Assembly: GCA_023544565.1 (NCBI GenBank)
Contig: JAMJFS010000005.1
Location: forward strand, 9,453 to 33,452
From: Methanosarcinaceae archaeon
GTDB lineage: Archaea; Halobacteriota; Methanosarcinia; Methanosarcinales; Methanosarcinaceae
Direction: 5' to 3'
Length of the DNA stretch: 24,000 bases
A model generated the notes under the pieces. The model was not told the origin of the DNA. It ran no database searches and was given only the letters and a program-made list of their open reading frames with translations. Position 1 is the first letter of the stretch; each line of letters opens with the position of its first letter. Position numbers and translations under genes: made by a program. Positions 605 to 22,965 of this stretch are shown piece after piece.

Positions 605-662
605 ATTTACAACAACAAAATTGTAACAATTATAACATTAAAGACATTAATTGGGTGTTCAA

Positions 663-6095: not shown

Positions 6096-6470
6096 ATGAG
6101 TCAAGTAGTAATGGTTGTAGATGATGAACCAGATACAATAGACCTTGTAAGACTGGTTCTTGAATCTGAAGGGATTGATGTTGTTGGTGCTAACAGTGGC
6201 AATGAATGTCTTAAAATGATCGATAACAGCAGACCAGATGCAATTTTATTGGACATCATGATGCCTGAAATGGATGGATGGGAAACATTCCATAAGATCA
6301 AAGAAAAAGATGCAACCATTCCAGTATCAATGCTTACTGTAAAAAGTCAGGAATTTGACAAGATGCTTGGTTTACATGTATTAAAAGCAGATGACTACAT
6401 TACGAAACCGTTTGGCAGAAAAGAGTTGGTAGAACGCACAAAAGCATTGCTCGGCTTAAAACAGCCCTGA
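6096..6470 (+). CDS. Single-domain CheY-like response regulator
   Basis: VVDDEPD, LLDIMMPEMDG, TVK and TKPF receiver signature in a 124 aa protein. GGTGG lies upstream of the ATG. Confidence 0.9.
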   Translation: MSQVVMVVDDEPDTIDLVRLVLESEGIDVVGANSGNECLKMIDNSRPDAILLDIMMPEMDGWETFHKIKEKDATIPVSMLTVKSQEFDKMLGLHVLKADDYITKPFGRKELVERTKALLGLKQP

Positions 6471-6484
6471 TCGATCTTCGTATA

Positions 6485-7537
6485 TCAGATCACTTCGCAC
6501 AATATTGCTTTTTCATCTTTTACAAAAAGATGTATGGTATTTTCACCACTTAATCCATTTTCGATCTCATTTCGTATAGTCCAGTAGTCAGCAGGGCCAA
6601 CACCGGCCCTTAATACAACTGTGCCCACATCATGTCTTTTTAAAATGGAATTTATTGCCTTAGGTTCAAAATCAGTAACCTGAAATACAGAATAATTATG
6701 TTTTATCATCCCGTTTTTGAATTGTGTATTGGATGTGAGGAGAAGTCTTTTTTTATCGATCTTAAAAAGTTCAACATCTACATTGGCAATGTCTTTTTTA
6801 ATTGATCCTGCAAGTTGAGGCAACATCTCTGCTTTGACCACGGACGGTTGTGGTTCGTATGCGTACTTCTTGATGTTCTGTGTTTCTTTAATATCATAAG
6901 TTGTATCTGTTGAACCTATATATGTGCCATCCGGAAGTGATACTGCTGATCGCTCGCATTGTTTCAGGTTCCCAAAATACAATGTCAGGCGATTAAGTTG
7001 TCCATCAAGAGAAAGGTATTCGCGTTCACAATCAAACGGGATTCGATCAGGCGGCATCTGTGGTGGCGCTTCAAACACGAAGTTGTCGGTCTTATCAGAA
7101 TATGCGGACATCACATTTGGAATTCCGGGTTCAAGACTCATTACTTTGCGCATATCTTCTTCAGCAGGTCTGGCAGGATCTGAGAATATCACATCAACTT
7201 TTGGGATCTGCTCCATCACATCCGGAGATAATGCATCACCACATATGAATACCACATTATCGATATCATGAAGTTCGCAGTTTTTCCTTGCGTACTCGAT
7301 CTTTTTTGGATCGATCTCTACAGCATATACAAGATCACATTCTTTTGCAAAGAATATCGTTTGTCCACCTATGCCGCAACTGATGTCGGCGAGTGTTTTG
7401 CACTTCAGGCGTTTTGCCCGATATTCCGCAACGACCTTTGGTGTTGCGAACCGGATCCCATCTTTATCGGAATAAAGGGGTTTTTCAAAATTCTTTTTTC
7501 GTGGCACATTGATCAGTATGTACACAGGTTCAAACAA
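6485..7537 (-). CDS. Class I SAM-dependent methyltransferase (RNA guanine-N2-MTase-like core with a C-terminal THUMP-like extension)
   Basis: Motif I LADISCGIGGQT, acidic loop VYAVEID, motif IV VIFSDPARP. TTG is the only start candidate after the upstream in-frame TGA. The substrate is not determinable from the sequence. Confidence 0.7.
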   Translation of the reverse strand: MFEPVYILINVPRKKNFEKPLYSDKDGIRFATPKVVAEYRAKRLKCKTLADISCGIGGQTIFFAKECDLVYAVEIDPKKIEYARKNCELHDIDNVVFICGDALSPDVMEQIPKVDVIFSDPARPAEEDMRKVMSLEPGIPNVMSAYSDKTDNFVFEAPPQMPPDRIPFDCEREYLSLDGQLNRLTLYFGNLKQCERSAVSLPDGTYIGSTDTTYDIKETQNIKKYAYEPQPSVVKAEMLPQLAGSIKKDIANVDVELFKIDKKRLLLTSNTQFKNGMIKHNYSVFQVTDFEPKAINSILKRHDVGTVVLRAGVGPADYWTIRNEIENGLSGENTIHLFVKDEKAILCEVI

Positions 7538-7841
7538 TTTAAAATCATCTTTTGGAATGTGAGTTTGAAATCACAATCTTTTTAAGCAACATTATCATCA
7601 GTTTCATACATATTCATTTAATAGAATCTGCAAAAATGTATTGTGCTTGAATAGGTTACTCTCGTTTACATTTATGCAAAGTAGATAAATGATGGAAAAG
7701 TAATCTGACATCATATATTATTATGACCGAATCACCGTTAGATTAAAATTATGGATTCATTAAATGAAAACAGTAAAATATGATTGTAATGCTTAATATT
7801 ACATTCAATTTAATATATTCAAATCAGAGAGGTATAATAAA

Positions 7842-8792
7842 ATGAGAAAACTGATGTTAATTTCGTTGATAGCACTTATTGTTGCTATGTTGGCGATTCC
7901 GGCATCTGCGGAAGAGGGTTTTTCAGTAACCAGTTTAGATGCGAAAGATGTGGACTGTAGATCTTCATGTCACACCCCAAACCCTCACACAATACATGCT
8001 GGAAAACCAGTGTCATGTGTGAATTGTCATGGTGAAACCCTTTCAATTGCGATTCCGCAATGTGAAAATTGCCATAGTGGACCAATACACGATGTTCACA
8101 AAGGCAAGGTAGCGACAGAAGATTGTTCATATTGTCACCAGAGTCTTGAGGGTGTACACAATACTATAGCGGCTGAAAGCGTATGTGCACATTGCCACAA
8201 GGACTTGATCGTAGTTCATGGTGGCGAAACTGAAAGTTGTACAAAATGTCACAGCACGGCTCCGAATATTGTAAAACCTGTTAAGACTGCAAATATGGAC
8301 ATTATATGTCAGGCATGTCACGTGAGTGATAATGTGGCATCTGTTCACGGAAATGAATCTAACAAGCAGGCATGTTATAACTGTCACCGACCTGGAGAAG
8401 GCGAAGTAAGTGCAACGCAGATCCCACACAATATTCACATTCCGGATGTAACATGTGTGGCATGTCACATGGATGAAGAAATTATCATTGTTCCTGAATG
8501 TACAAGATGTCATGATGTCGATGACCTTCACGCATTTGGTACTGTTGGCATAAAATCTAAAGATGAGATGCAATGCAGCGCATGTCACCCGGATTCATAC
8601 TTCGGTGGTTCTAAACCGGCAGAAGTTGTAGATAAAACTCCTGAAAACAAAGTAACAACATCTGATAAACCAACATCTGATGAACCAACACCAATTGAGT
8701 CAGGGAATGAAGAACCAATCCTACCAGGTTTCGGAATTATTTCTGCAATCGGTGCAATTGCTGCTCTTTATTTTGTAAGTAAAAGAAAGTAA
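7842..8792 (+). CDS. Secreted multihaem c-type cytochrome (10 CxxCH + 1 CxxxCH) with Thr/Ser/Pro linker and PGF-CTERM archaeal surface anchor
   Basis: Signal peptide MRKLMLISLIALIVAMLAIPASA. Haem motifs: CRSSCH, CVNCH, CENCH, CSYCH, CAHCH, CTKCH, CQACH, CYNCH, CVACH, CTRCH, CSACH. The C-terminus PGFGIISAIGAIAALYFVSKRK is preceded by KTPENKVTTSDKPTSDEPTPIESGNEEP. Confidence 0.9.
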   Translation: MRKLMLISLIALIVAMLAIPASAEEGFSVTSLDAKDVDCRSSCHTPNPHTIHAGKPVSCVNCHGETLSIAIPQCENCHSGPIHDVHKGKVATEDCSYCHQSLEGVHNTIAAESVCAHCHKDLIVVHGGETESCTKCHSTAPNIVKPVKTANMDIICQACHVSDNVASVHGNESNKQACYNCHRPGEGEVSATQIPHNIHIPDVTCVACHMDEEIIIVPECTRCHDVDDLHAFGTVGIKSKDEMQCSACHPDSYFGGSKPAEVVDKTPENKVTTSDKPTSDEPTPIESGNEEPILPGFGIISAIGAIAALYFVSKRK

Positions 8793-8807
8793 ATTTTACT
8801 TTCTTTT
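8781..8807 (+). terminator. Candidate terminator: perfect A/T-rich palindrome plus T-tracts overlapping the cytochrome stop codon
   Basis: AAAAGAAAGTAAA (8781-8793) is the exact reverse complement of TTTACTTTCTTTT (8795-8807) and is followed by ATTTTAG. The stem is weak because it is almost all A:T. Confidence 0.4.
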
Positions 8808-8976
8808 ATTTTAGTGACACTGTTCCAAAAATCAGTTATTTTGTTGACACCAACTTTAGGTAAAATCAGCGTAAATCTGTGTCTGAAATATAAGTAGATA
8901 CTGATTTATACAGATTTGTAGTTGTACCTGAATCTGATATATTCACGATATAACTGGATTTTGGTACTGTTTCGTG

Positions 8977-9009
8977 CGAGTTAATCCGAGCATAGCGAGG
9001 ATTTTCTCG
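8977..9009 (-). repeat. Family-A intergenic hairpin element, copy 1 (hairpin part only)
   Basis: Reverse strand reads CGAGAAAATCC-tcgctatgctc-GGATTAACTCG. The architecture matches copies at 12227, 15885 and 22479, and an oligo-T tract follows on the + strand (ctattttta). Confidence 0.6.
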
Positions 9010-9243
9010 TCTATTTTTATAATATGTTTTTGCTTAATTGATTCCTGTTTTTGAAATATTAGTTTAATATTTTTATTCGTAATATTTTACAATTTGATTA
9101 ACAGTGGTCAAAATTTAAAGTTTGCAAATGTCCAGGGATAATTTATATCTAAAACAAGTTCATGGCATACTTTTTTTGAATATTTATATATAATAGTATG
9201 CATATACTTATAAATGTTCATTTATATAATCATAAAGTGAAAC

Positions 9244-10488
9244 ATGGCTGGATTTGCTAATAAAATAAAGAAATTAACTGGTGCATTCAGTAAAAAAGGT
9301 ACACTCAACGAGGCTGCATCACCATTTGACACCGTAGCCCCACCATTTGGTAATAATCCATTTGATACGGGAGGAGTTTCAGGCATGTCTGCAGGTGGTC
9401 CACCAGATATAGGATCAGTTCCAAATATGGCGGCGGGTGGTCCCCCAGGCATGGGAATCGATCCATCTGCACAGCAGGCAACCGCATCAGTCGATAATAA
9501 GATGGCAGAAGAGAACTCAAAAAAGATCATTAATCTCGAAAGCAGGTTATCAAAAGTTGATGTAAACATATCAATGGTGCAACGTGAAAGCGTAGAGGTT
9601 AAAAAAACAGTTGAGAAGATCGACCAGAGCGTGCTTGAACTTTTATCCCTTTATGAAATTGTATCTAATCAGGTAAACCCTTTTGTTGGTGAAGCTGGAA
9701 CAGATCGCGAGAGCATCGAACGTTTTGAAAAAGATGAAAAACGGATGACTGAACTCGGTGACGTCATAGTAATGTTAAAGAATGAGATCGATGTTTTATC
9801 ACAGCGTGCTGAAATACCCCGCGTGGCACCCGAAACCGACGGGAAGATCAGTGATATCGATACAAAGATTGACGCATTTGCAGATGCAATGGTATCATTA
9901 CATGAAAGCATAGAAGTTATATCAATAAAAACAGATGAACTGGTTCTAAAAACCGGACAACTGAATCAGGATATAGTTGATCTGGCAGACACCACAAGCA
10001 ATATCTCAAAAAGGGTAGATGATCTGGAAAAGATCGATTTCACAAAGATGGCACAAACAGTGCCTACAGTGGAAGAAGATAATACTTCTGAAAATGAACA
10101 GGTGTCTGAGGTCAAAACACAGAATGGACATTCTATCATACGTCTGGATAGTATCAAACGCGACCCGATGAGTGTGGTCGTATTGCTTAACTGGATCGAA
10201 TTTTTAATGGAGCGTGTTGGAAGGAATAATCTCATGGATGCGCTTGACTACTATGTAGATATCGAATGGATCAGTGAAAATGTGCGTTCTGAAATAATGG
10301 CATATGCACGGGGCATCGATTATTATGTTGAAAAACCGACATGGAGACTGCTTCCCGAAGACCATACAAAATCCCTTCTGTTCATTGAGAGGCTCTGTGG
10401 ACGCAAGATTGATAAGAACATGCTAAGCACGATCGATCGGGAGATGTCAAAGGTCAAGCACGGCTTAGAGGAATTGTATGGGATTTGA
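9244..10488 (+). CDS. arlCDE: Archaellum accessory protein, fused FlaC/FlaD/E-type (ArlCDE)
   Basis: Gly/Pro-rich N-terminus, long coiled-coil middle, and a C-terminal FlaD/E-type domain (DPMSVVVLLNWIEFLMERVGRNNLMDALDYYVDIEWIS). It sits first in an F-G-H-I-J gene order. Confidence 0.85.
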   Translation: MAGFANKIKKLTGAFSKKGTLNEAASPFDTVAPPFGNNPFDTGGVSGMSAGGPPDIGSVPNMAAGGPPGMGIDPSAQQATASVDNKMAEENSKKIINLESRLSKVDVNISMVQRESVEVKKTVEKIDQSVLELLSLYEIVSNQVNPFVGEAGTDRESIERFEKDEKRMTELGDVIVMLKNEIDVLSQRAEIPRVAPETDGKISDIDTKIDAFADAMVSLHESIEVISIKTDELVLKTGQLNQDIVDLADTTSNISKRVDDLEKIDFTKMAQTVPTVEEDNTSENEQVSEVKTQNGHSIIRLDSIKRDPMSVVVLLNWIEFLMERVGRNNLMDALDYYVDIEWISENVRSEIMAYARGIDYYVEKPTWRLLPEDHTKSLLFIERLCGRKIDKNMLSTIDREMSKVKHGLEELYGI

Positions 10489-10909
10489 AACATCTGTTGT
10501 AATTGCCATTTTCTTTTTGTCAGCTATGGTCCTTGGAACCACGGCATATGTAGTAATGAGTTCTTCACAGGATCTGGTGGATGATGCATCGTATGAGCAA
10601 AATGAAATGCAGATCAAACGTTTGCATACTGATATTGTAATAGATATTTCTACGCCAACAGGTTCGGCTGCATTATATGACCTAGCGCTTACGATTACAA
10701 ATACAGGAAGCAAGACATTAAAATCGGATGAATTGAATGTATTGGTCGATGGAATAATTCAAACATATACTTTCACACCAACAACAACAACATGGACGCC
10801 GGATGAGGAAAAAATACTTTCAATTGAAGGACTTTCGGGGGGAGGCTCACATAGGGTTAAAGTGGTAACAGAGAACGGAATCTCCGATTACGATACATAC
10901 AATGTTTGA
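10478..10909 (+). CDS. arlF: Archaellum stator/S-layer-binding protein FlaF (ArlF)
   Basis: MGFETS N-terminus with a single TM helix followed by a beta-rich domain. It overlaps arlCDE by 11 nt and is a paralog of the next gene (shared ...V[KR]VV[TS]ENG.SD ending). Confidence 0.75.
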   Translation: MGFETSVVIAIFFLSAMVLGTTAYVVMSSSQDLVDDASYEQNEMQIKRLHTDIVIDISTPTGSAALYDLALTITNTGSKTLKSDELNVLVDGIIQTYTFTPTTTTWTPDEEKILSIEGLSGGGSHRVKVVTENGISDYDTYNV

Positions 10910-11016
10910 GCAGATATACACAGAATGTTTAAAAATGAATTCACGTAGTTAAAGTATTAAAATAATCAACTTTATATCAATTATACACATAATAGAATTA
11001 AAATAAAGGTCTGAAC

Positions 11017-11502
11017 ATGTTGTTCTCACGCACAATTTTCAAGGATGAACGGGCAGAAACTGCCATTACCCATATGATATTTTTCATAGCTGCAGTCGTA
11101 TTGGCAATGGGAGTTGTTGCAGTTCTATCCACAAATGTCCAATCCATATCAGGTGCAACCACGGCAGGCAGCAAAGTAATGTCTGATCAGTTAAGGACTG
11201 ATATTACAATTATAAATGATCCGAATGAGGTGCCATACATTAACAATGAAAATTATACGTTCTATGTCAAAAACACAGGAAGATCCGAGCTTAACATTGA
11301 TTATGTGAATATTATTTTGGATGGTGTGTTGATCCAATCGAATAATCAGGATATTACTGTTTTGGATGGAGATGTGGTGTGGCGACCGGGCGATGTTCTG
11401 GGCATAAATGTAACAATAAGCCAACTAAGTTCAGGGGATCACAGTGTTCGTGTGGTATCAGAAAATGGCAAATCAGATGCCATGAATTTTATAACTCCTT
11501 AA
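11017..11502 (+). CDS. arlG: Archaellum protein FlaG (ArlG)
   Basis: N-terminal TM helix (ITHMIFFIAAVVLAMGVVAVL) with a FlaF/G-type beta domain. Position in the operon is consistent. Confidence 0.75.
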   Translation: MLFSRTIFKDERAETAITHMIFFIAAVVLAMGVVAVLSTNVQSISGATTAGSKVMSDQLRTDITIINDPNEVPYINNENYTFYVKNTGRSELNIDYVNIILDGVLIQSNNQDITVLDGDVVWRPGDVLGINVTISQLSSGDHSVRVVSENGKSDAMNFITP

Positions 11503-11529
11503 AAACATTGATGGATAGAGGTAATTACA

Positions 11530-12225
11530 GTGGCTAATGTTTGTTCGTTTGAGATTCCAAGAGATGAGTTTAACAGAAAACTGGGCGGAGGTTTCCCTCC
11601 CGGTTCTTTAGTGGTTATCGAAGGTGGTAGTGGCGGTGGAAAAAGTACGATCTGTCAACGTCTTATATTTGGATTGTTGGAAAATCAAAATAGTGTAACA
11701 TTCGTGTCAACACAACAGACTACAAAAGGATTCATAAACCAGATGTATTCACTTGATTATCCAATTGCGACATATTTACTAAATGGGAGTTTCCTTTTCA
11801 TTCCTGTCATTCCACTGGTTCAGGCTGCAAAATCAAGGATCGATTTTCTTGAACGTTTGATGGGTGCAAAGGATTTGTTTGAGAATAATATAATTGTCAT
11901 TGATACAATTTCTTCTTTAATTAAATACAGTGTGGACAATGAAAAAAGTCTTGATCTAGTCTCATTTTTCAAAAAACTGAATGGAATGGGAAAGATTATA
12001 ATTTTGACTGTTGAGCCAAGCCAATTAAGTGAAGATATAACTTCTATGTTTCGCTCTTCGTGTGATATTTACATAAGTTTAATGGTGAAACCAATGGCTA
12101 ATGAGGTCAAGCGTACAGTAGTTGTTAACAAATTCACAGGAGCCAAGGGGCCTGTGGGGCAGATGATAGGATTTAGGATCGAACCGAAGGTAGGTCTTGT
12201 CGTAGAGATTGCGGCGGTTGGTTAA
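11530..12225 (+). CDS. arlH: Archaellum KaiC-like ATP-binding protein FlaH (ArlH)
   Basis: GTG start after GAGGTAA. Walker A GGSGGGKST and a RecA/KaiC-like single domain of 231 aa, located immediately upstream of flaI. Confidence 0.9.
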   Translation: MANVCSFEIPRDEFNRKLGGGFPPGSLVVIEGGSGGGKSTICQRLIFGLLENQNSVTFVSTQQTTKGFINQMYSLDYPIATYLLNGSFLFIPVIPLVQAAKSRIDFLERLMGAKDLFENNIIVIDTISSLIKYSVDNEKSLDLVSFFKKLNGMGKIIILTVEPSQLSEDITSMFRSSCDIYISLMVKPMANEVKRTVVVNKFTGAKGPVGQMIGFRIEPKVGLVVEIAAVG

Positions 12226-12226
12226 A

Positions 12227-12286
12227 CGAGATAATTCTTCCTTCGATCAAATTGACTCAGACTATATAATTCTATAAATTATATAG
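12227..12286 (+). repeat. Family-A intergenic element, copy 3 (hairpin + TATA-like tail) filling the arlH-arlI spacer
   Basis: CGAGATAATTC-ttccttcgatc-AAATTGACTCAG-actatataattctataaatt starts 1 nt after the arlH TAA. By eye it matches the reverse strand of 22453-22511 at nearly every position over ~55 nt. Confidence 0.75.
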
Positions 12287-12312
12287 TATAAAAAATTGGA
12301 AGGTAATGTAAT

Positions 12313-13965
12313 ATGGATCCGGAATTCGAAAAAGCACTGCAAAGAAATCCACATCTTGGAGTATACCTAAACGAGTTCAGGCAAAAAACAGGAACAATCC
12401 CTGATTTTGTCGTAAAATTGTCAAAAGATCTGGATGAGGAGAATGTCAATTTGATTCTTCCTGTGGGTGACCCTGTGTTTATCCATATATACGGGACAGC
12501 CGAGATGGGGGTAGCTCGATATTATACCATTGAACCACCTCTCTTTCCGAAGGAAAAAAGAAAATATACTGCCATCATGAGTATGATCCTTGAGAAATCT
12601 TCCAAAGAGCCAGTGCCGGATGGAGAAAGCGAACTCAAATCATTAATCTCAAAACTTCTTAATGAATCGATTGATATTGGTGCCGGGGGTGATCTCCCAG
12701 ATGAAAATGAAAAACCCGGTCTTTTGCAGAAATTGATCCCAACACAAAAAAAAGTACCGCTTGATCAACAAGAGTACAACAAAATACTATATTATATTGA
12801 GCGAAACATCATTGGTTCGGGCCCTATCGAACCTATTATCAGAGATCCTTATCTTGAAGATATCCATAGTATCGGCATTAGTGGTGTGTTCATTGTCCAC
12901 AAGATATTAGGCATGATGGAAACAGACCTATCATTTGGTGATGACGCCGGATTGGATAGTTGGCTTCGTAGTATGAGTGAACGTATCGGTCGACCTGTAA
13001 GTGATGCCAAGCCTATCGCTGATGGTGCATTGCCCGATGGTTCACGTATCAATATTATTTACAGTCCTGATATCAGTCGGCGTGGAAGCAGTTTCACAAT
13101 GCGTAAGTTTAGTGACGTTCCTGTGAGTATTATTCAGTTGATCAACTGGGGTGCTGTTAATTGCGATATGGCAGCGTATATGTGGATGTTACTTGAGAAT
13201 GGTATGAGTATCTTCTTTAGTGGTGAGACGGCAAGTGGTAAAACAACAATGTTGAATGCATGTCTGTCTTTTATAAATCCTAAATCAAAGATTTTTACAA
13301 CTGAAGATACCGCCGAGGTTCAGCCCCCACATGCTGTTTGGCAGCAGTTGATCACTCGTGAAGACGGACCCCCTGATTCAAGGGTAGATACATTTACGTT
13401 GCTTAAAGCTGCTTTGCGTTCAAGACCAAACTATATCATTGTTGGTGAGATTCGAGGTGTTGAAGGAGCAGTGGCATTCCAGGGTATGCAGACAGGGCAC
13501 CCTGTTTTGGCTACATTTCACGCATCAGCAATTACAAAGATGATCCAGCGTTTAACAGGCGACCCTATCAATGTTCCTGTGACTTTTATTGATAATCTTA
13601 ATGTTGGAATGATACTGCAGGCAGTATATCGAAAGGGAAAGTTCCTGCGGCGCTGCATCTCAATTGATGAGATCGAAGGCTATTATGAAGAAGCCGGCGG
13701 TGTGGTTACAAGAGCAGTATTCCAGTGGGACCCGGAAACAGATACACACGCTTTTAGGGGTTTGAACAATAGTTTTATTCTTGAAAATAAGATCGCTACT
13801 AAATTGGGATATGAGGACAAACGTCAAATATATGAGGATATGTTCTTACGTTCAAGGATACTGCAAGAAATGCAAGCACGCGGCATTGAAGATTATTATG
13901 AAGTGAATAATCTACTGATTAATTTCTATCGACATGGTATTGATGGGTTGCCATTCCCGATATAA
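12313..13965 (+). CDS. arlI: Archaellum motor ATPase FlaI (ArlI), type II/IV secretion ATPase family
   Basis: Walker A GETASGKTT, Walker B NYIIVGEIRG, His-box TGHPVLATFHA. 550 aa. Confidence 0.95.
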   Translation: MDPEFEKALQRNPHLGVYLNEFRQKTGTIPDFVVKLSKDLDEENVNLILPVGDPVFIHIYGTAEMGVARYYTIEPPLFPKEKRKYTAIMSMILEKSSKEPVPDGESELKSLISKLLNESIDIGAGGDLPDENEKPGLLQKLIPTQKKVPLDQQEYNKILYYIERNIIGSGPIEPIIRDPYLEDIHSIGISGVFIVHKILGMMETDLSFGDDAGLDSWLRSMSERIGRPVSDAKPIADGALPDGSRINIIYSPDISRRGSSFTMRKFSDVPVSIIQLINWGAVNCDMAAYMWMLLENGMSIFFSGETASGKTTMLNACLSFINPKSKIFTTEDTAEVQPPHAVWQQLITREDGPPDSRVDTFTLLKAALRSRPNYIIVGEIRGVEGAVAFQGMQTGHPVLATFHASAITKMIQRLTGDPINVPVTFIDNLNVGMILQAVYRKGKFLRRCISIDEIEGYYEEAGGVVTRAVFQWDPETDTHAFRGLNNSFILENKIATKLGYEDKRQIYEDMFLRSRILQEMQARGIEDYYEVNNLLINFYRHGIDGLPFPI

Positions 13966-13976
13966 GGTGATCTGAT

Positions 13977-15632
13977 ATGAATTACAAGCAGGCATTTCAC
14001 AGCATTGATATGGAACCGGCTGATTATGCCAAAAAGTTTGCTATCCCCGTAATTGTTTTTGGTTTTGTCTTTTCGTATATATTATATGCATTTTTACCAA
14101 CACTTTTTGTTGGACCTGCCAAATATATACCGGCTTTACTTCCGGTTATCTGTATATTGTTTGCTGTATACTATCCAATGTCTATGGCTGCCGGAAAGGC
14201 TGCTGAGATCGACAATAATATGCACTATTACATCACACAGATGGGTTCGATTGCAACAGCAGAAACACCGAGACTTGATATTATCCGTATAGTTTCAGAG
14301 AATAAGGATTACCTGTATCTCGCCAGTGAAACAAAGAAGATCTATAATCTTGTAACTGTATGGAACATGAGTCTTGCAGAAGCTTGTAAGTTCATATCCA
14401 GGCGTACACCTTCCATAATTTTTGAGGATTTTTTGGACAGATTCGCACATGGATTGCAGTCAGGCGAGGAAATTAAATCATTCTTATCTGCTGAGCAAAA
14501 TGTTGTTATGAATGAATATGAATCTATGTATAATGGTGCACTTTATACAATAGAGATCATCAAGGAATTATTCGTATCACTGGTCATGTCACTCATATTT
14601 CTTGCATCATTTGCAGTTATCATGCCTGTTATCACCGGTATGGATGCAATCTTGCTTATGAGCATTGTTGTTCTAACTTTTGTTGGAACTGATATTGGCA
14701 TGGTATTCTATACAAAGAGCATGGTGCCAAGGGATCCCACGTGGCAGCAAACAAAAATAATGACGGATGCAAAACTAAAATTGAATCGTTCAATTCCTGT
14801 TTCTATTTTAGGATGTATTGTGGTCACGATCATTGTAATATTATATGGTAAAATGACACTGCCAATAGCAGTTGCAATGTGTTTGACCCCACTTATTTAT
14901 ACAGGCCAAATTTCACGAAAGATCGAAAAAGGCATAAGACGCAGGGATGAAAATTATCCGTCATTTATTAGGTCACTTGGCAGTTCTGCAGGCGCTCGCG
15001 GTGGTTTAATCGATGATGCATTAAAAGCCCTTCGTGCACATGATTTTGGTCCTTTGACAAGTGATGTGAATAATCTTTACAAAAGACTTACAACAAGAAT
15101 TGACAAGGTAAGTTCTTGGAATATGTTTTCAGCGAGTACAGGGAGTAACCTCATACAACGGTTTAGTGTTATGTTTGTAGAATCCACTCATCTTGGCGGT
15201 AAACCGGAAATAATTGGAGATATTATTGCCACCAATTTCCATCGAATTGTAACTCTTAGAAAAAAACGTTACCAATCAGCATCAAGTCTGGTCGGTGTTT
15301 TGTATGGTTTGACAGGCGGTATTGGATTTACGATGTATATCTCTCTTGGTGTTGTTGACCTGATGCAAGAAATGTTTGCCAGTGTAGAAATGCCAGCAGG
15401 AATGTCCATGGGTATGATCCTGTATACTGATGTTGGAAGCATTGAAACATTATCTGCCATGATCTTGTTAACAATGATTGCACATTCGTTGTTTTCAGCA
15501 ATTCTCATTCGTGTAGTAGATGGCGGAAATATGTTAAGCGCATCGACCGATTTTGTGATAATGGTATGGATATCCGGAATTAGTGCAGTTGTTACGACAT
15601 CAGGTGTTGCATCACTGCTTGGTGTAACTTGA
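13977..15632 (+). CDS. arlJ: Archaellum platform membrane protein FlaJ (ArlJ)
   Basis: A 551 aa polytopic membrane protein with two cytoplasmic TadB/C-like soluble loops, immediately after flaI. Confidence 0.9.
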   Translation: MNYKQAFHSIDMEPADYAKKFAIPVIVFGFVFSYILYAFLPTLFVGPAKYIPALLPVICILFAVYYPMSMAAGKAAEIDNNMHYYITQMGSIATAETPRLDIIRIVSENKDYLYLASETKKIYNLVTVWNMSLAEACKFISRRTPSIIFEDFLDRFAHGLQSGEEIKSFLSAEQNVVMNEYESMYNGALYTIEIIKELFVSLVMSLIFLASFAVIMPVITGMDAILLMSIVVLTFVGTDIGMVFYTKSMVPRDPTWQQTKIMTDAKLKLNRSIPVSILGCIVVTIIVILYGKMTLPIAVAMCLTPLIYTGQISRKIEKGIRRRDENYPSFIRSLGSSAGARGGLIDDALKALRAHDFGPLTSDVNNLYKRLTTRIDKVSSWNMFSASTGSNLIQRFSVMFVESTHLGGKPEIIGDIIATNFHRIVTLRKKRYQSASSLVGVLYGLTGGIGFTMYISLGVVDLMQEMFASVEMPAGMSMGMILYTDVGSIETLSAMILLTMIAHSLFSAILIRVVDGGNMLSASTDFVIMVWISGISAVVTTSGVASLLGVT

Positions 15633-15739
15633 TGGAAATACAAAAATACGCAGGTTTATATCCAGACATGATGCGGATCGTATTTGTATAGTTGCGGCAA
15701 GAAATCTGCGTAAATAAAATTGTTTTATCTAAAACCAAT

Positions 15740-15791
15740 ACAACCGCCGTAGGCGGCACAATCCCGCACCACTGCCCCTATAAATATAAAC
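15740..15791 (+). repeat. GC-rich hairpin element (CCGCC-GTA-GGCGG) with AATCC box and TATA-like tail; related to family B and to 19568-19602
   Basis: ACAACCGCCGTAGGCGGCACAATCCCGCACCACTG versus the reverse complement of 19568-19602, ACAACCGCCGCAGGCGGCGCATTCTAACACCACTG (about 29/35 identical by eye). The tail is cccctataaatataaac. Confidence 0.6.
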
Positions 15792-15865
15792 TTTTCCGAC
15801 AGAATATGGTGAGATTGTATTCTCCGAATTAATGCGATTGTAAGTGATTATTTTCTCTTGGCACA

Positions 15866-15917
15866 TATTTACAATTATATAGTACGAGTTAACACAAATA
15901 AAGTAAGCATTATCTCA
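15866..15917 (-). repeat. Family-A intergenic element, copy 4 (diverged hairpin + TATA-like tail)
   Basis: Reverse strand reads TGAGATAATGCttactttatttgtgTTAACTCGtactatataattgtaaat, which aligns with copy 3 (CGAGATAATTCttccttcgatcAAATTGACTCAGactatataattctataaat). Confidence 0.6.
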
Positions 15918-15922
15918 TTGAT

Positions 15923-15985
15923 GGAGGAACGCGCCGCTTACGGAGGATTGTATCGGCATCAAAAATATCTAAACAAATACTGCGA
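15923..15985 (-). repeat. Family-B intergenic element (copy e2)
   Basis: Reverse strand reads cagtatttgtttagatatTTTTGATGCCGAtacAATCCtccgtaaGCGGCgcgttcc, which aligns with 19314-19373 and 19416-19475. Confidence 0.65.
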
Positions 15986-16060
15986 ATTTATGGATTGGAG
16001 TTCGGTATTTGATTCTAAAGCATCAGTTTTATCGTTCAAAAGTGTATCCTGAATTTTGCT

Positions 16061-17110
16061 CTATGTATCATCGTCATCCGAATACTTTGCAGAGATCACA
16101 TTCCTAAATTCATTAACATTTTCCAGCAACTCTTCTTTGGATGTGGTTGATGTGGAAAAGTCCAAAAATAATACTAGTATGTGTTTTGATTTTTTTATTT
16201 TCGCACTAAGAACTTTAATGTTCAATCTTTCAATGGAATCGAATATTTGATCTACGACAGAAAGACCATAAATTTTGATGTGTAAAACTTCGATATATTT
16301 CTTGTCGTAAACTATCCCTGAGTCATCTGCCAGTATCACTACGCCTTTCTCGTATTTTGACATAAGATGTTTGGACGCCAAAGTGATACCTAGAGCACAA
16401 AAAATTGCAAGCATAAATGCATTTTTTGAAAATATTACACCCATGTTATTCCAATCAAGCACCACTTCTTCGGATGTGAATAAAGAACCCATGGAATATG
16501 TGGTATGGGGATCATGACATCCCACACATTTATTATCATTCTCTCCATGATTCCCCTAACTCATATTATTCATCTGGGCTGAATGGCAGATATTACATAG
16601 ATCATTGCTTTCGCTAAGATCTGCGATAAATGAACCTGTTTTTAATTTATCTCCGGAATGGCATGTATTGCAATGTTCCATCCAACTATGATTTCCGCTG
16701 CTAAAATTACTCCTGACATCAGCATGGACATTTGGAGACGACAATGGACCGTGACAGGATGAACAAGATTCTGCACCCGGTATGTGATTGGCATGACAAT
16801 CTAAGCAATCCGGAGTATGATGACAAGGGGCACAATTTTCAGCCCTGCGGTCAATACCATTGTGTATACGGTGGTAATCTTCCCGTCCGTCGATCGTGTG
16901 CAATGAACTGTGGTCACTAGCGTGACAGTTTTCACATTTGGCCTGTGTTGCGATTGCAGATTGAGTTGATATATTTGTATTGTGACATGCGCTACACTAA
17001 TTGTCTTCTAAAGAAATGATTTCATTCTCAGATGCAAATGCATTTCCAACAAACAATAATAGTAACATTGAAAACAAAACCGTTTTTATTACTTTATCGA
17101 TTGTCATCAT
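16061..17110 (-). CDS. Membrane-anchored octahaem c-type cytochrome read as ONE frame through two in-frame TAG codons (16997-16999 and 16556-16558); candidate pyrrolysine/read-through gene or recent pseudogene
   Basis: Track ORFs 16556..16903 and 16061..16525 are in the same frame, as is the upstream stretch to ATG 17110. Hand translation: MMTIDKVIKTVLFSMLLLLFVGNAFASENEIISLEDN-TAG-CSACH..CENCH..(CAPCH, CLDCH, CSSCH, CNTCH, CNICH)..NNMS-TAG-GNHGENDNKCVGCH..TM helix AFMLAIFCALGITLA..~100 aa C-terminal domain. The frame ends at a third TAG (16061-16063); the next in-frame TGA is at 15959-15961. Confidence 0.6.
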
Positions 17111-17316
17111 TATCACTATTGTTACAAAAGAGGGCAAATTCCCCAAACCTTCGATTTTACCAATATATATACACCCTATAATTTAATAAAAGTGTTCCTA
17201 ATTTATTGTGTAAGATGGTGGCAGGGTTTGTCTGCCATATCACTTAAGGGTTGTTTGAAATAATCGAAACTCTTTCCAGTCAGTTGCCCCTAATTTTTAA
17301 AAAACGCAAACCGTCA

Positions 17317-18005: not shown

Positions 18006-19077
18006 TCAAACATTCAACATTCTCAATTCTCTCGACAACATATAATATGTCAAACCGAAAGCCATCATATCAGCCAGAGGAAACACGATCCAGACTACGA
18101 TCAATCCAAAGAATATTGGAAATATCAGCACCAGGGGGTATAAGGAAAAAAACCTGACGAGCCAGAGACAGGATCATTGAAGGTCTTGCCTTACCGATGG
18201 ACTGGTAATAAGCCGAACCTACGATCTGGTAACCTATGAAAGGAAATGCAAGTACAATGATCTTAAGCGCGAAAGTGCCAGAATCTATTAATTGTTGGTC
18301 TGTTGTGAAAATCCCAAATATTTGCATCGGGAACAATAATAAGACAAGAAAGCCAAATATCGATATGCCTGTCATGATCTTGATGGACAACAAGATCGTA
18401 TCCTTAACCCTTTTGTAGTTCCCTGCGCCATAATTGAATCCAACGATCGGCTGCATACCCTGTATAGTTCCGAACATCGGCATAAAGATAATCATCATCA
18501 AACGATTGATAACTCCAAACGCCGCAATTGCAACATCTCCGCCATAAAATGCAAGATTATGATTAAGGATCACCACCATAACACTGGTCGATGCCTGCCT
18601 GACAAAACCGGAAATTCCAATCGCAATAGTCTCTCTGACAATGTTATACTGAAGTTTTAAATTTTTCAACTTTAAAGCAAGGACACTCTTGCCGGAAACA
18701 AAATAATATAAAATATAGATAGCACCTACCATTTGCGATATAACAGTCGCCAATGCTGCACCCTTAACACCCATGTGTAAACCAAAAATAAACACCGGGT
18801 CCAGAAAAATATTAAGCACACCGGAAAGGATCATCACGATCATTGCATCCTTTGCATTCCCCTCCGCCCGTAAAACATTATTAATTGACATTGCAAAAGC
18901 AAAGAAGATAGTTCCATACAAAATGATCTCAAGATAATCCAGAGAATAAGGTAAAATAGTATCAGTCAGATTATAGAGAGCTTGAACCAGCATCCCCACT
19001 GTTGCAGGAACTGATAATTTGAAAAGAAGTTTTCCAATACTTTGATCAGCCAATGATCTTGTCCGTTCGTTCATCAA
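18006..19077 (-). pseudogene. MATE-family efflux transporter, apparently decayed (frameshift in a C5/G5 run plus probable internal in-frame deletion)
   Basis: The N-terminus IGKLLFKLSVPATVGMLVQALYNLTDTI jumps straight to LPYSLDYLEIILYG. The track ORF ends in nonsense (PPGADISNILWIDRSLDRVSSG*). Removing one C at 18134-18138 gives the expected hydrophobic tail LVLIFPIFFGLIVVWIVFPLADMMAFGLTYYMLSRELRMLNV*, ending at TGA 18006-18008. Confidence 0.7.
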
Positions 19078-19208
19078 AGATGCCTTATTTGATGTATTTG
19101 AAAAATATTCATAATATTATGATATTCGTTTTTCATTAATTTATATCCCATAGATCCATTCGGTATAAAAAATCACATATCGATTCAATTATACTTAATC
19201 CTATCCAC

Positions 19209-19290
19209 GAGTCAAAAATGTCAGAATTTTATGGTTGTCAATATAAAAAGTCGATACCGTGATCCATACATTAACGTGACATTTTGACTC
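19209..19290. repeat. 15-bp inverted repeat pair separated by ~53 bp (possible cruciform or MITE-like remnant)
   Basis: GAGTCAAAAATGTCA (19209-19223) versus the reverse complement of TGACATTTTGACTC (19277-19290), which is GAGTCAAAATGTCA. The arms differ by a single A. Confidence 0.6.
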
Positions 19291-19313
19291 AGGAATGTAC
19301 ATCAAACAAGATC

Positions 19314-19373
19314 AAATGTACTTGTTCAGGTCATTTTGATGCCGAGTTAATCCACCACAGGCGGCATATCCCT
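19314..19373 (+). repeat. Family-B intergenic element (copy e1)
   Basis: aaatgtacttgttcaggtcaTTTTGATGCCGAgttAATCCaccacagGCGGCatatccc. The stem TGCCG/CGGCA encloses the AATCC box. Confidence 0.65.
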
Positions 19374-19415
19374 ACATTATCGATAAAATTTTCATCTTTT
19401 CACATTTAATTAACA

Positions 19416-19475
19416 AAATGATATTTGTTTCATTATTTTTGACGCCGAAACAATCCACAGTAGGAGAAGCGTCCC
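19416..19475 (+). repeat. Family-B intergenic element (copy e3)
   Basis: aaatgatatttgtttcattatTTTTGACGCCGAaacAATCCacagtaggagaaGCGTCcc, followed by tttataaaca. The stem here is GACGC/GCGTC. Confidence 0.65.
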
Positions 19476-19567
19476 TTTATAAACAAGAAAATAATCCCTT
19501 ATTGTCGCATTAATTCTAATTACGCAATACTACAAGAGACCTATCAGAAAAACCATATTACGAGTAT

Positions 19568-19602
19568 CAGTGGTGTTAGAATGCGCCGCCTGCGGCGGTT
19601 GT
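19568..19602 (-). repeat. GC-rich hairpin element downstream of hgcB, homologous to 15740-15774
   Basis: Reverse strand reads ACAACCGCCGCAGGCGGCGCATTCTAACACCACTG (hairpin CCGCC-GCA-GGCGG). On that strand it is preceded by TTTTGATGCAGA, which resembles the family-B leader TTTTGATGCCGA. Confidence 0.6.
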
Positions 19603-19635
19603 GGAATACGGCGTATTGATATATCTGCATCAAAA

Positions 19636-19917
19636 CTAACAGCATTCACCATCCCCACAAGTGACTTCCTTTTGTCCGGTAATTGCAGACCACATCATCG
19701 CATACGCGCATCCAACTCCACTCTCAACCTTGATCGCATCTGTCGGGCAATTGAGATGGCAGGCTCCACATTCCATGCATGCCTTCTTATCCACCAACTG
19801 CGCCGTCTTTTCACCATCACGGAATACACCATGGGGACAGACAGTGCTACACATCCCGCAATTGATGCACAACTTTGGATCATATTCCAGCGTATTCTCA
19901 GTATATGAATCAAACAT
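19636..19917 (-). CDS. hgcB: Mercury methylation ferredoxin HgcB (2x[4Fe-4S])
   Basis: CINCGMCSTVCP and the hallmark CMECGACHLNCP, with a C-terminal vicinal Cys pair (GDGECC). It overlaps hgcA by 8 nt (ATGTTTGA). The stop is TAG, followed by TTT TGA. Confidence 0.9.
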   Translation of the reverse strand: MFDSYTENTLEYDPKLCINCGMCSTVCPHGVFRDGEKTAQLVDKKACMECGACHLNCPTDAIKVESGVGCAYAMMWSAITGQKEVTCGDGECC

Positions 19918-21000: not shown

Positions 21001-21288
21001 CTAACACCTCACATCACAACATTCTGTGGCAGTTTCAATTCCCACATATCTCAACATTTTCTTGACATCTTCGTTCCGAATACTGTATATTATATTCCTG
21101 CCATCCTTCTCATACTTAAGAATTCCTGCTTCAACCAACGTCTTGAGATGCCTCGAAATTGTAGTCTGGTCTTTATTGATGCATGAAGTGAAATCGCATG
21201 CACAATGATCTTTCATCAGCAAAAAACTTACTATGCAAAGGCGGGTTTCATCTCCCAATGCTTTGAAGAATTTAACCATATTATTCAT
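21001..21288 (-). CDS. ArsR/SmtB-family metalloregulator upstream of hgcAB
   Basis: FKALGDETRLCIVSFL, metal-site-like HCACDF, wHTH DQTTISRHLKTLVEAGIL and a Cys-rich tail TECCDVRC. The preferred start is ATG 21288 (MNNMVKFF). The stop is TAG 21001-21003, followed by CAA TGA. Confidence 0.85.
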   Translation of the reverse strand: MNNMVKFFKALGDETRLCIVSFLLMKDHCACDFTSCINKDQTTISRHLKTLVEAGILKYEKDGRNIIYSIRNEDVKKMLRYVGIETATECCDVRC

Positions 21289-21345
21289 TGCATATATGTA
21301 CATTTGTGCATGTATAAATATGTTTTGCCATCTAAACAACAAAAT

Positions 21346-21380
21346 GTTACAGCCCATTACGGCCCATTACAGCCCATCAT
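21346..21380. repeat. 10-bp tandem direct repeat x3 (RGCCCATTAC) between ogt and the arsR promoter
   Basis: gttac|agcccattac|ggcccattac|agcccatcat read directly. The last unit overlaps the ogt stop codon (21377-21379). Confidence 0.85.
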
Positions 21381-21730: not shown

Positions 21731-22452
21731 AAATGATCACTATCGCCAAACACTTCCATCTCAAGCTGTTCCCTTTTTCGCTTATAACGCCACCATCTAA
21801 CCAACAACAAAACAACAACTGCCAATGAACCAACAACAAAAACCATCAAGTACGGGAGCGTGGCACTCAGCAACAGTGGATTCATATTATCCCTCTCCTC
21901 GTATGTCGGATACATGATGTCCTTCCTGTCATTGCTGTGTGCAAGCCCCAGCGCATGACCCAATTCATGTTTTGTGACCAAAAACATATTCAAGTCACCA
22001 TACTGGCGCCATGCATAACCCTGGTAGTTCCCGACCTCAAGCACAATATCACCACGCAGGTACTTACCATTGACCTCATAAGGACTCCAAAATCCTGCAA
22101 CACCTTCCTCTGCACCTGTAGCCTCTTCGATATTCTCAACCCACATAATGCGTATATCTGCATCATCTGTATTTACCATCTCAAAATCCGGCGTGAAATC
22201 CAACTTTGAGTTGCCGCCGTCCTCCCAATATAAAATAGCGGATTCAACTTGAACACGATAAGTTGAACTGTAATGTTGCGGAACATTCACATCATCAATG
22301 AAAACAGTAATTGGAGAATGGTCCCATGGAGTATCCAGAATTTTTGGATACTCATCAGCAGCTGATGCAAACTGTGATACAAATATAAGAGCTAAAAAAG
22401 AAATTATAACAATTGCAACACCATGTTTCTTTTCTGACATGATATTTTTCAT
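21727..22452 (-). CDS. Matrixin-like (M10/metzincin) zinc metalloprotease with signal peptide and C-terminal TM anchor
   Basis: HELGHALGLAHS (HExxHxxGxxH) followed by the Met-turn DIMYP. N-terminal signal VAIVIISFLALIFVSQFASA and a C-terminal helix LPYLMVFVVGSLAVVVLLLV followed by basic residues. Confidence 0.8.
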   Translation of the reverse strand: MKNIMSEKKHGVAIVIISFLALIFVSQFASAADEYPKILDTPWDHSPITVFIDDVNVPQHYSSTYRVQVESAILYWEDGGNSKLDFTPDFEMVNTDDADIRIMWVENIEEATGAEEGVAGFWSPYEVNGKYLRGDIVLEVGNYQGYAWRQYGDLNMFLVTKHELGHALGLAHSNDRKDIMYPTYEERDNMNPLLLSATLPYLMVFVVGSLAVVVLLLVRWWRYKRKREQLEMEVFGDSDHL

Positions 22453-22511
22453 AGCATATATTTTATAAATATATAGTACGAGTCAATTCGACCGAAGGAA
22501 GAATTTTCTCG
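22453..22511 (-). repeat. Family-A intergenic element, copy 2 (hairpin + TATA-like tail) filling the CMD-protease spacer
   Basis: Reverse strand reads CGAGAAAATTC-ttccttcggtc-GAATTGACTCG-tactatatatttataaaatatatgct, then ATG. It starts 1 nt after the CMD-family TAA, the same placement as copy 3. Confidence 0.75.
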
Positions 22512-22512
22512 C

Positions 22513-22965
22513 TTAATCGTCTTTATCAATTGAGAGGTCACAAACATCACACATTTTGCCGATGTCACCAACACAAGAAAGTTCAGAATCGAGTGCTCGC
22601 GTACCTTCGGCGAGCACAGAAGCATTGGACAATGTCCCCCCTATCAAAATAGCATCAAATATCTCTTCTTTTGAGATCCCCAACCTGGTTGCAACTCTTA
22701 TGTGCATCTTGAGGCAATGATCACATCGAAGCGCAGATGACACACCTATAGATATCAACTCTACCGTTCTTGAATCCATGCGCTTGAACTCACGCATGAT
22801 AGAATCATCGTATAGGATCTTTGGAATTAAAAGTTCAGGCATATCTTTCATGAAATTCAGGATATATGGGATCTCACCATATCGTTCCTTAACATCGCCA
22901 AGAAGTTCATCTACAGCATCCTCTGGTTCCTTTTTCAAAACTTCCCTGATCTTTTCAATTTTCAT
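22513..22965 (-). CDS. Carboxymuconolactone decarboxylase / AhpD-like family protein
   Basis: CMD-family core ...SSALRCDHCLKMHIRVATRLG... with a CxxC. The preferred start is ATG 22965 (MKIEKIREV) after a G-rich stretch; the track start is 22995. Confidence 0.75.
   Translation of the reverse strand: MKIEKIREVLKKEPEDAVDELLGDVKERYGEIPYILNFMKDMPELLIPKILYDDSIMREFKRMDSRTVELISIGVSSALRCDHCLKMHIRVATRLGISKEEIFDAILIGGTLSNASVLAEGTRALDSELSCVGDIGKMCDVCDLSIDKDD

Follow-up and report, generated by a model that had tools for sequence, protein, structure and literature searches.

The stretch of DNA analyzed here, referred to as the window, comprises 24,000 nucleotides of contig JAMJFS010000005.1 (positions 9,453 to 33,452 of the forward strand; GenBank assembly GCA_023544565.1) from a Methanosarcinaceae archaeon. 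On its minus strand, the reading frame of a predicted multihaem cytochrome is interrupted by two in-frame TAG codons. Methanogenic Methanosarcinaceae decode UAG as pyrrolysine (Pyl), and the locus thus raises the question of whether these codons are translated or have inactivated the gene. The initial annotation, made from the sequence alone, favored Pyl incorporation or another form of read-through and named a very recent pseudogene as the alternative. It is this alternative that is supported by the codons of orthologs, by a sister strain, by the use of TAG in the genus and by the divergence between strains. The window copy is most probably a young pseudogene, derived by stepwise inactivation from the gene of an accessory multihaem cytochrome.

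A single cytochrome frame with two internal TAG codons

The minus-strand frame from 17110 to 16061 consists of 349 sense or TAG codons followed by a terminal TAG (Table 1). The TAG codons at positions 38 (TAG-1) and 185 (TAG-2) are its sole interruptions, and we confirmed that it contains no TAA, TGA or frameshift, as had been stated in the initial annotation. Two shorter open reading frames (ORFs), 16556..16903 and 16061..16525, had been assigned to one frame, and both are indeed pieces of the frame described here. The downstream ORF had been considered not to be independent; its GTG start at 16525 codes for the Val inside the CVGCH motif, which rules out ORF 16061..16525 as a cytochrome gene of its own. 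The two TAGs aside, the frame is pristine, with no indels and all eight CxxCH motifs intact, an observation that runs counter to a pseudogene.

A signal peptide had been read upstream of the first TAG, and the signal-peptide-like N-terminus at 17033-17110 (MMTIDKVIKTVLFSMLLLLFVGNAFA) is conserved in orthologs. Judged by its eight CxxCH motifs, this N-terminus and a match of 29.5 bits to the Pfam family Cytochrom_c3_2 (PF14537; cut-off of 25), the gene belongs to the predicted multihaem c-type cytochromes (MHCs). TAG-2 divides the haem motifs, with seven CxxCH before it and the eighth, CVGCH, after it.

Table 1. Features of the cytochrome locus. Positions are those of the window; features are ordered in the direction of the gene.
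Feature	Positions	Strand	Basis
Conserved 5' flank (promoter/leader) with A/T-rich box CTTTTATTAAAT	17111..17262	-	Ortholog comparison
Disrupted CDS, predicted 8-haem membrane-anchored c-type cytochrome	16061..17110	-	Sequence, intact homologs, Pfam
Putative Sec-type signal peptide, residues 1-26, ...GNAFA/SENE (slash, cleavage point)	17033..17110	-	Read from the sequence; conserved in orthologs
TAG-1, codon 38; newer, strain-specific nonsense mutation (GAG to TAG)	16997..16999	-	GAG/GGG/GAG in orthologs, GAG in C14-18
Haem-binding ectodomain with 8 CxxCH	16514..16996	-	Motif positions
CSACH	16982-16996	-	
CENCH	16922-16936	-	
CAPCH	16820-16834	-	
CLDCH	16793-16807	-	
CSSCH	16751-16765	-	
CNTCH	16658-16672	-	
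CNICH	16583-16597	-	
TAG-2, codon 185; older nonsense mutation (CAG to TAG)	16556..16558	-	CAA/CAG/CAG in orthologs; also TAG in C14-18
CVGCH	16514-16528	-	
Single predicted transmembrane (TM) helix, residues 225-249	16364..16438	-	Hydrophobic segment; helix modelled at P0001 residues 243-264
Predicted cytoplasmic C-terminal ACT-like domain, beta-alpha-beta-beta-alpha-beta	16076..16297	-	AlphaFold2 (AF2) and Foldseek
Genuine stop, TAG	16061..16063	-	C-terminus common to 20/20 family members; TAA in L098 and L099
3' flank of ~45 nt, kept in four close orthologs, non-coding by pattern	16016..16060	-	Column variability; homology ends there
Intergenic repeat element downstream of the cytochrome	15854..15925	-	C14-18 homology break at 15893 inside

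Intact relatives and the architecture of the family

A protein search returned three intact full-length homologs of 350-361 aa that align with the window protein from end to end at 68-75% identity, and the DNA of close orthologs was taken from four loci (L001-L004). The family was widened by a profile search to about 20 full-length representatives, which correspond to ~20 clusters at the 50% identity level, whereas a metagenome scan with the family alignment gave only distant matches (25-35% identity). None of the 20 members compared, all of which were called as proteins, contains an interruption. Two proteins, P0004 and P0025, start near the position of TAG-2 and were considered as further TAG-split copies; both genes are intact, and their internal starts had been mis-called.

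The end-to-end alignment of the intact homologs shows that the frame is one gene, as originally proposed, and the proposed anatomy of eight haems, one TM helix and a ~100-aa cytoplasmic tail is correct. Across the 20 members, conservation of motifs 4-8 reaches 90% or more, no protein lacks haem 8, the TM helix or the tail, and 17 proteins match PF14537 or PF14522. In an AF2 model computed with the 20 sequences, the C-terminal domain of P0001 (pLDDT 83-94) has a beta-alpha-beta-beta-alpha-beta topology; the haem domain was poorly modelled, as expected without cofactors. Foldseek matched the tail to ACT/ferredoxin-like regulatory domains at a marginal E value of ~1e-3 (rmsd of ~3 Å over ~80 columns), with ACT-type matches to IlvN, PGDH-ACT, Rel-ACT and the NikR C-domain, and one of the 20 members showed a weak match to the ACT family PF01842 (E=0.003). 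According to these models, the intact relatives are likely built as an 8-haem wire outside the cell that is joined through one TM helix to a domain of the ligand-binding type in the cytoplasm. By analogy with their family context, they may serve as membrane-anchored modules for extracellular electron transfer.

In this respect the family resembles other membrane-anchored ANME MHCs, which likewise possess a Sec signal, multiple CxxCH motifs, a C-terminal TM anchor and a presumed role in extracellular electron transfer; a C-terminal TM helix is present in 10 of the 13 MHCs of the Methanovorans metagenome-assembled genome (MAG) KA19 (PMC8470020). It differs from them in that the proteins of this small family possess a further domain behind the anchor, predicted to be cytoplasmic and ACT-like, of which we found no description in the papers examined, and in that the window copy is inactivated. 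The intact family, with its eight haems, TM helix and predicted ACT-like domain, is uncharacterised and may merit study where it is intact.

Sense codons at both TAG positions in relatives

At site 1, the three intact orthologs read GAG, GGG and GAG, and at site 2 CAA, CAG and CAG; the four close orthologous loci carry GAG or GGG at the first site and CAA or CAG at the second. Each TAG of the window is thus one base away from the ortholog codon, through a G-to-T change at site 1 and a C-to-T change at site 2. G/C to T is the usual mutational direction, and both observed changes follow it. In the 20-member alignment, the residue that immediately precedes the first haem Cys falls into the TAG-1 column, which is hypervariable (E/G/D/N/Y/K/V), and the TAG-2 column is variable as well (Q/L/R/E/S). 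A bulky residue might be tolerated in such columns, which would be compatible with translation of UAG. However, TAG is conserved at neither site in the intact relatives compared, that is, in the close loci and in the 20-member family. An ortholog comparison had been put forward in the initial annotation as a check of the read-through reading, and its outcome, namely intact relatives with GAG/GGG and CAG/CAA at the two sites, argues against it. The same is true of RNA structure: no unusual structure, such as the stem-loop of the PYLIS type that is an optional feature of Pyl sites, was detected in the 100 nt after either internal TAG (z=+0.17 and +0.16). A search of the window against Rfam gave no match.

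The fact that both interruptions are TAG in an otherwise intact frame had been taken to favor read-through. The statistic turned out to be weak. Under several mutation spectra, the probability that a nonsense mutation in this gene produces TAG is 0.22-0.38, and two TAGs out of two are expected by chance with p ~0.05-0.15. Furthermore, ~4.4% of the single-base changes in the gene are nonsense, so that a second stop soon after the first is unremarkable.

The frame also ends on a TAG (16061), and it had been noted that it could run for another 33 codons. It is indeed open as far as TGA 15959-15961, but these additional codons do not belong to the protein. In all 20 family members, the C-terminus reads ...SAEYSDxYE[LI] and lies at the position of this TAG, and the distant orthologs L098 and L099 end at the same position on TAA; the terminal TAG is therefore a genuine stop. 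We had considered it as a conserved read-through site, since the TAG end and ~45 nt after it are common to the four close orthologs. This was ruled out, as the variable columns are distributed over the three codon positions at 5:4:4 in the 3' flank versus 91:82:139 in the coding sequence, and as the 5' non-coding flank is equally conserved.

A sister strain separates the two mutations in time

An exact-protein match of FlaI was found on contig JARGFY010000006.1 of assembly GCA_029211045.1. This contig is 99.85% identical to the window over 6313-15893, and both therefore belong to the same species. The C14 MAGs (accession range JARGFH-JARGGJ) were obtained from the Gladkovsky terrestrial mud volcano, and C14-18 is the sole Methanovorans described among them (PMC11279179); since the accession falls inside this range, we took GCA_029211045.1 to be MAG C14-18. 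Its average nucleotide identity (ANI) to MAG B4-05, whose assembly GCA_023544565.1 contains the window, is 99.5% (PMC11279179). The window strain belongs to the Taman mud-volcano population. Exact-protein look-ups of the scramblase, the 154-aa ORF and MHC2 returned no record.

The profile search also retrieved two fragments with 100% identity to the window protein, both encoded on small C14-18 contigs. The first contig, JARGFY010000240.1, covers MatE and the scramblase gene together with the beginning of the cytochrome gene. Its last bases are ...GAC AAT GAG T, which makes site 1 a GAG (Glu) codon. After a gap of 8 nt, the second contig, JARGFY010000258.1, continues the gene and contains ...ATG AGT TAG AAG..., with TAG at site 2. 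As TAG-2 is present in two assemblies from different samples and site 1 is GAG in C14-18, TAG-2 is real and is the older mutation, and TAG-1 arose later, in the window strain only. The assembly break exactly at codon 38 suggests that both site-1 alleles coexist in the C14 sample. In the 5' flank, the two strains also differ in the length of a TA-dinucleotide stretch at 17162.

Faster divergence of the cytochrome between strains

Over the intact block 6313-15893, the window and C14-18 differ at 14 of 9,581 nt (8 nonsynonymous and 6 synonymous differences). The cytochrome contains 5 differences in 789 nt (P=0.007, or 0.03 if an adjacent GG/AA pair is counted as one event), and thus differs ~4 times more between the strains than the adjacent intact operon. 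It also shows an excess of nonsynonymous changes (P=0.005-0.03); these strain-comparison statistics rest on 4-5 substitutions. The differences are not distributed evenly. In the 242 nt compared after TAG-2 there are 3, all nonsynonymous, one of which replaces a Gly found without variation among the close orthologs, whereas the 544 nt compared upstream of TAG-2 differ only by TAG-1/GAG and one synonymous change, which is not above background (P=0.19). Raised nonsynonymous divergence after TAG-2, few as the events are, is expected if the sequence beyond a real stop is released from constraint, and it speaks against read-through. Over the whole lineage, the N/S ratio of the window copy (1.15) is not elevated compared with those of the intact orthologs (0.65-2.09), so the gene must have been inactivated very recently.

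UAG is an ordinary terminator in the host genus

The host is Candidatus Methanovorans (ANME-3), a methane-oxidising archaeon. A methanogen-type archaeon is indicated by the neighboring genes in the window, among them those of an archaellum operon, an Mmp7/McrC-like gene and a CdhD-like gene. In a scan of reference genomes, the window Mmp7 was nearest to Methanovorans MAGs, with identities of 97, 95, 89, 87 and 81% to KA19, E21, CSMAG_2122, CSMAG_2493 and HMMV, respectively, all of which are classed as Candidatus Methanovorans (ANME-3) (Woods et al. 2025, PMC12180501). The initial assignment to the order Methanosarcinales was thus correct.

UAG serves as an ordinary terminator in this genus. 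In a census of long non-overlapping ORFs, TAG ended 17 of 112 (15%) in Methanovorans loci versus 18 of 362 (5%) in loci of Methanolobus, Methanosarcina and Methanohalophilus, genera that were taken as Pyl-using (Fisher p=0.0008). Within the window, 3 of 24 genes end on TAG, among them those for ArsR (21001) and a ferredoxin (19636). These data agree with the published proportion of ~17% in all 21 Methanovorans genomes versus <5% in Pyl-using Methanosarcinaceae (PMC12180501). A tabulation of TAG use had been suggested as a check of the Pyl reading; carried out on Methanovorans loci, it reveals no depletion of TAG and speaks against that reading. However, as much as 27% of the stops can be TAG in Pyl-positive genomes, and the frequency of TAG is not by itself sufficient to rule out Pyl.

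The Pyl machinery itself has largely been lost. Only 3 of 11 Methanovorans species have kept pyl or methylamine genes, and one of the three sets is visibly degraded (PMC12180501). Two species, SB1 and AG1, retain pyl genes under purifying selection (PMC12180501), which is a point in favor of read-through in the genus; this retention, and the fact that both nonsense codons of the window gene are TAG, run counter to a pseudogene. Judging from the genome counts in the same study, pyl relics occur in seven genomes, of which four probably belong to SB1, two to HMMV1 and one to AG1, and the two-genome species of C14-18 and B4-05 is therefore unlikely to be among those that retain pyl. The pylTS genes of ANME-3 bin S7 failed to complement a pylTS deletion in Methanosarcina acetivorans, S7 pylBCD could replace its counterpart, and the authors judged Pyl incorporation to be unlikely in the S7 organism (PMC12626013). 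KA19 lacks methylamine methyltransferases (PMC8470020), and no tRNA or pyl genes were found within the window. We infer that Pyl decoding is absent in the window's own species.

The cytochrome gene lies in a variable, decaying spot

The cytochrome gene is accessory and dispensable. At the syntenic position in Methanovorans CSMAG_2493, the cytochrome is missing and a SIR2/TPR gene comes after the scramblase gene. In the window, MatE lies 1 kb from the cytochrome and is itself a pseudogene, which lacks ~100 N-terminal residues and has its last 44 residues in another frame. The homology with C14-18 ends at 15893 within an intergenic repeat, and other genes follow FlaJ in C14-18. It is from this absence, the neighboring pseudogene and the strain-variable junction that the accessory status follows. 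No cytochrome ortholog was detected in 80 reference-genome loci that were scanned with Mmp7 and 10-kb flanks. Another MHC gene, which is intact, is present in the window at 7842-8792, and KA19 encodes 13 MHCs (PMC8470020).

Weighing the explanations

The history that we consider most plausible is one of decay in two steps. A C-to-T change would first have converted CAG into TAG at codon 185, and the product would thereby have lost haem 8 together with its anchor and its tail. Later, and in the window strain only, a G-to-T change would have converted GAG into TAG at codon 38, leaving the signal peptide and 11 residues. With UAG acting as an ordinary terminator in the genus, no full-length cytochrome would be made. 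Ordinary prokaryotic nonsense pseudogenes likewise contain in-frame stops that a single base separates from the sense codons of intact orthologs, show serial lesions in related strains, raised nonsynonymous divergence and a neighboring pseudogene, and concern accessory, redundant genes. The window copy departs from them in being very young, in having no indels and in having kept all its cofactor motifs.

In-frame TAGs in a lineage that descends from Pyl users invite a recoding reading during annotation. Here, the comparison with orthologs and with a sister strain points to plain decay, and the case may serve as a worked example for telling gene decay from recoding. For ANME-3, the locus would provide a snapshot of continuing turnover of accessory MHCs in a mud-volcano population, which fits the published picture of Methanovorans remodelling its electron-transfer genes.

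An alternative that we regard as unlikely is that TAG-2 is a tolerated truncation. Strains of the C14-18 type would then make a secreted, soluble 7-haem cytochrome of 184 residues, and the window strain would have lost it through TAG-1. The C14-18 gene is open upstream of TAG-2, with a signal peptide and seven CxxCH motifs, and the contrast described above between an upstream part at background and a downstream part with three nonsynonymous changes speaks for such a product. However, the numbers of substitutions are tiny, and a product without an anchor would be without precedent in the family, in which haem 8, the TM helix and the tail are found in 20/20 members. The window copy would be dead either way.

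A further alternative, which we consider very unlikely, is that only TAG-2 is real and that TAG-1 reflects an error of sequencing, assembly or consensus calling, or else a minority allele, in the assembly of the window. TAG-1 has been seen in the window only; in the C14-18 assembly the codon is GAG and the contig stops 1 nt beyond it, with a gap of 8 nt to the next contig, as happens at polymorphic sites in metagenome assembly graphs. Nevertheless, single-base substitution errors are uncommon in an assembled consensus, and the break fits a true coexistence of two alleles equally well. Nor would the gene be rescued, since TAG-2 is independently confirmed.

The reading favored initially, in which UAG is translated by Pyl-tRNA or another suppressor into a full-length 8-haem cytochrome with pyrrolysine at residues 38 and 185, is not supported, given that TAG is an ordinary stop, that relatives have sense codons and that the TAGs arose stepwise, and we consider it very improbable. 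It is not without precedents. Singleton, non-conserved Pyl sites have been described in Pyl-using archaea, and UAG is ambiguous in M. acetivorans, where RdmS is made in a long and a short form. The neutral or singleton Pyl sites in Thg1 and RdmS of M. acetivorans, and those in archaea in which all TAG codons are read as Pyl, are likewise in-frame TAGs at non-conserved positions in Methanosarcinaceae (bioRxiv 10.1101/2024.09.30.615893; PMC12626013). Unlike these genes, the window gene belongs to a genus that often uses TAG as a stop and in which the Pyl machinery is mostly lost or disabled, it contains two serial TAGs, and it evolves faster downstream than the adjacent intact genes. Even if the host truly used Pyl, reading through two stops in series would give very little product. 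There is only a very slim chance that the window strain still charges tRNA-Pyl or suppresses UAG at low efficiency and produces a certain amount of full-length cytochrome that carries pyrrolysine at two positions on its surface. If so, this would be the first Pyl-containing multihaem cytochrome, and ambiguous UAG decoding would have outlasted methylamine metabolism in ANME-3.

The cytochrome unit and the junction with strain C14-18

The similarity between the target cytochrome gene and its orthologs covers a unit composed of approximately 150 bp of 5' sequence (17111-17262), the coding sequence, and approximately 45 bp of 3' sequence (16016-16060), and breaks off sharply at both ends. This two-sided end of similarity suggests that the gene and its flanks form a cassette that occurs in differing genomic contexts. 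Within the 5' leader/promoter, the (TA)n tract at 17162 differs in length by one TA dinucleotide between the window and C14-18, a sister-strain MAG of the same species. Because of this difference, the cytochrome ORF of C14-18 was called 46 codons further upstream.

The window and C14-18 are 99.85% identical as far as 15893 and divergent beyond this position (from 9582 onward in the C14-18 locus L095). Downstream of FlaJ, C14-18 contains aminotransferase, AsnC, and S8e genes, whereas the window harbors the cytochrome, scramblase, and MatE genes. The junction at 15893 is either a true rearrangement or a mis-join of the MAG at a repeat.

Repeats and neighboring genes

An intergenic repeat of ~60 to 70 nt, with the core GAGATAAT.CTTCCTT...ATTRACTCGTACTATATAAT, was found at the positions listed in the table. 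FlaI and the M10 peptidase gene each have a copy immediately 5', and another copy is located 3' of the target cytochrome gene; the repeat may be a promoter/leader module. The MatE remnant is separated from the small ferredoxin gene by an AT-rich stretch of ~560 bp without ORFs (19078-19635). This stretch contains an inverted-repeat arm (19486-19516) that pairs with a second arm at 15826-15856, and the cytochrome-scramblase-MatE segment is thus bracketed by an inverted repeat.

Coordinates of repeats, neighboring genes, and intact family members
Feature	Location	Strand	Remarks
GvpD-like/KaiC-type ATPase gene	window 651-2006	+	GvpD P-loop and basic region 2 domains
Second multihaem cytochrome gene	window 7842-8792	+	316 aa, C-terminal anchor
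Intergenic repeat	window 12215-12300	+	
Intergenic repeat	window 15840-15925	-	
MatE efflux pseudogene	window 18012-19089	-	Aligned to 471-aa Methanolobus MatE
Intergenic repeat	window 19470-19555	+	
2x[4Fe-4S] ferredoxin gene	window 19636-19917	-	Terminator TAG
ArsR-family gene	window 21001-21357	-	Terminator TAG
Intergenic repeat	window 22440-22525	-	
Intergenic repeat	L001 1310-1391		After cytochrome ortholog
Intact target-cytochrome family member	L098 2380-3546		
Intact target-cytochrome family member	L099 414-1487		

The efflux gene MatE is present as a pseudogene. With respect to the Methanolobus protein, one frame corresponds to residues 104 to 424 and a second frame to residues 422 to 465, and ~100 N-terminal residues are absent. 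Differences between the window and C14-18 are clustered at the frameshift site (18138-18145). The ends of the ferredoxin and ArsR-family genes are consistent with TAG being a working terminator here; the latter gene has another stop two codons past its terminal TAG. No further gas-vesicle genes were found within the window near the GvpD-like gene.

Other multihaem cytochromes

The second multihaem cytochrome of the window, unbroken in both this strain and C14-18, is no more than a remote relative of the target, with 26% local identity. Between its ...SKDEMQCSACH segment and the region of TAG-1, the first in-frame TAG of the target gene, there is a DNA match at chance level (inverted repeat I3). 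As for the distant family members at L098 and L099, the public annotation includes only their C-terminal halves, begun at internal ATGs; at L098, the N-terminal half is covered by a spurious overlapping ORF call, and a different, second MHC gene is located directly 3' of the family member.
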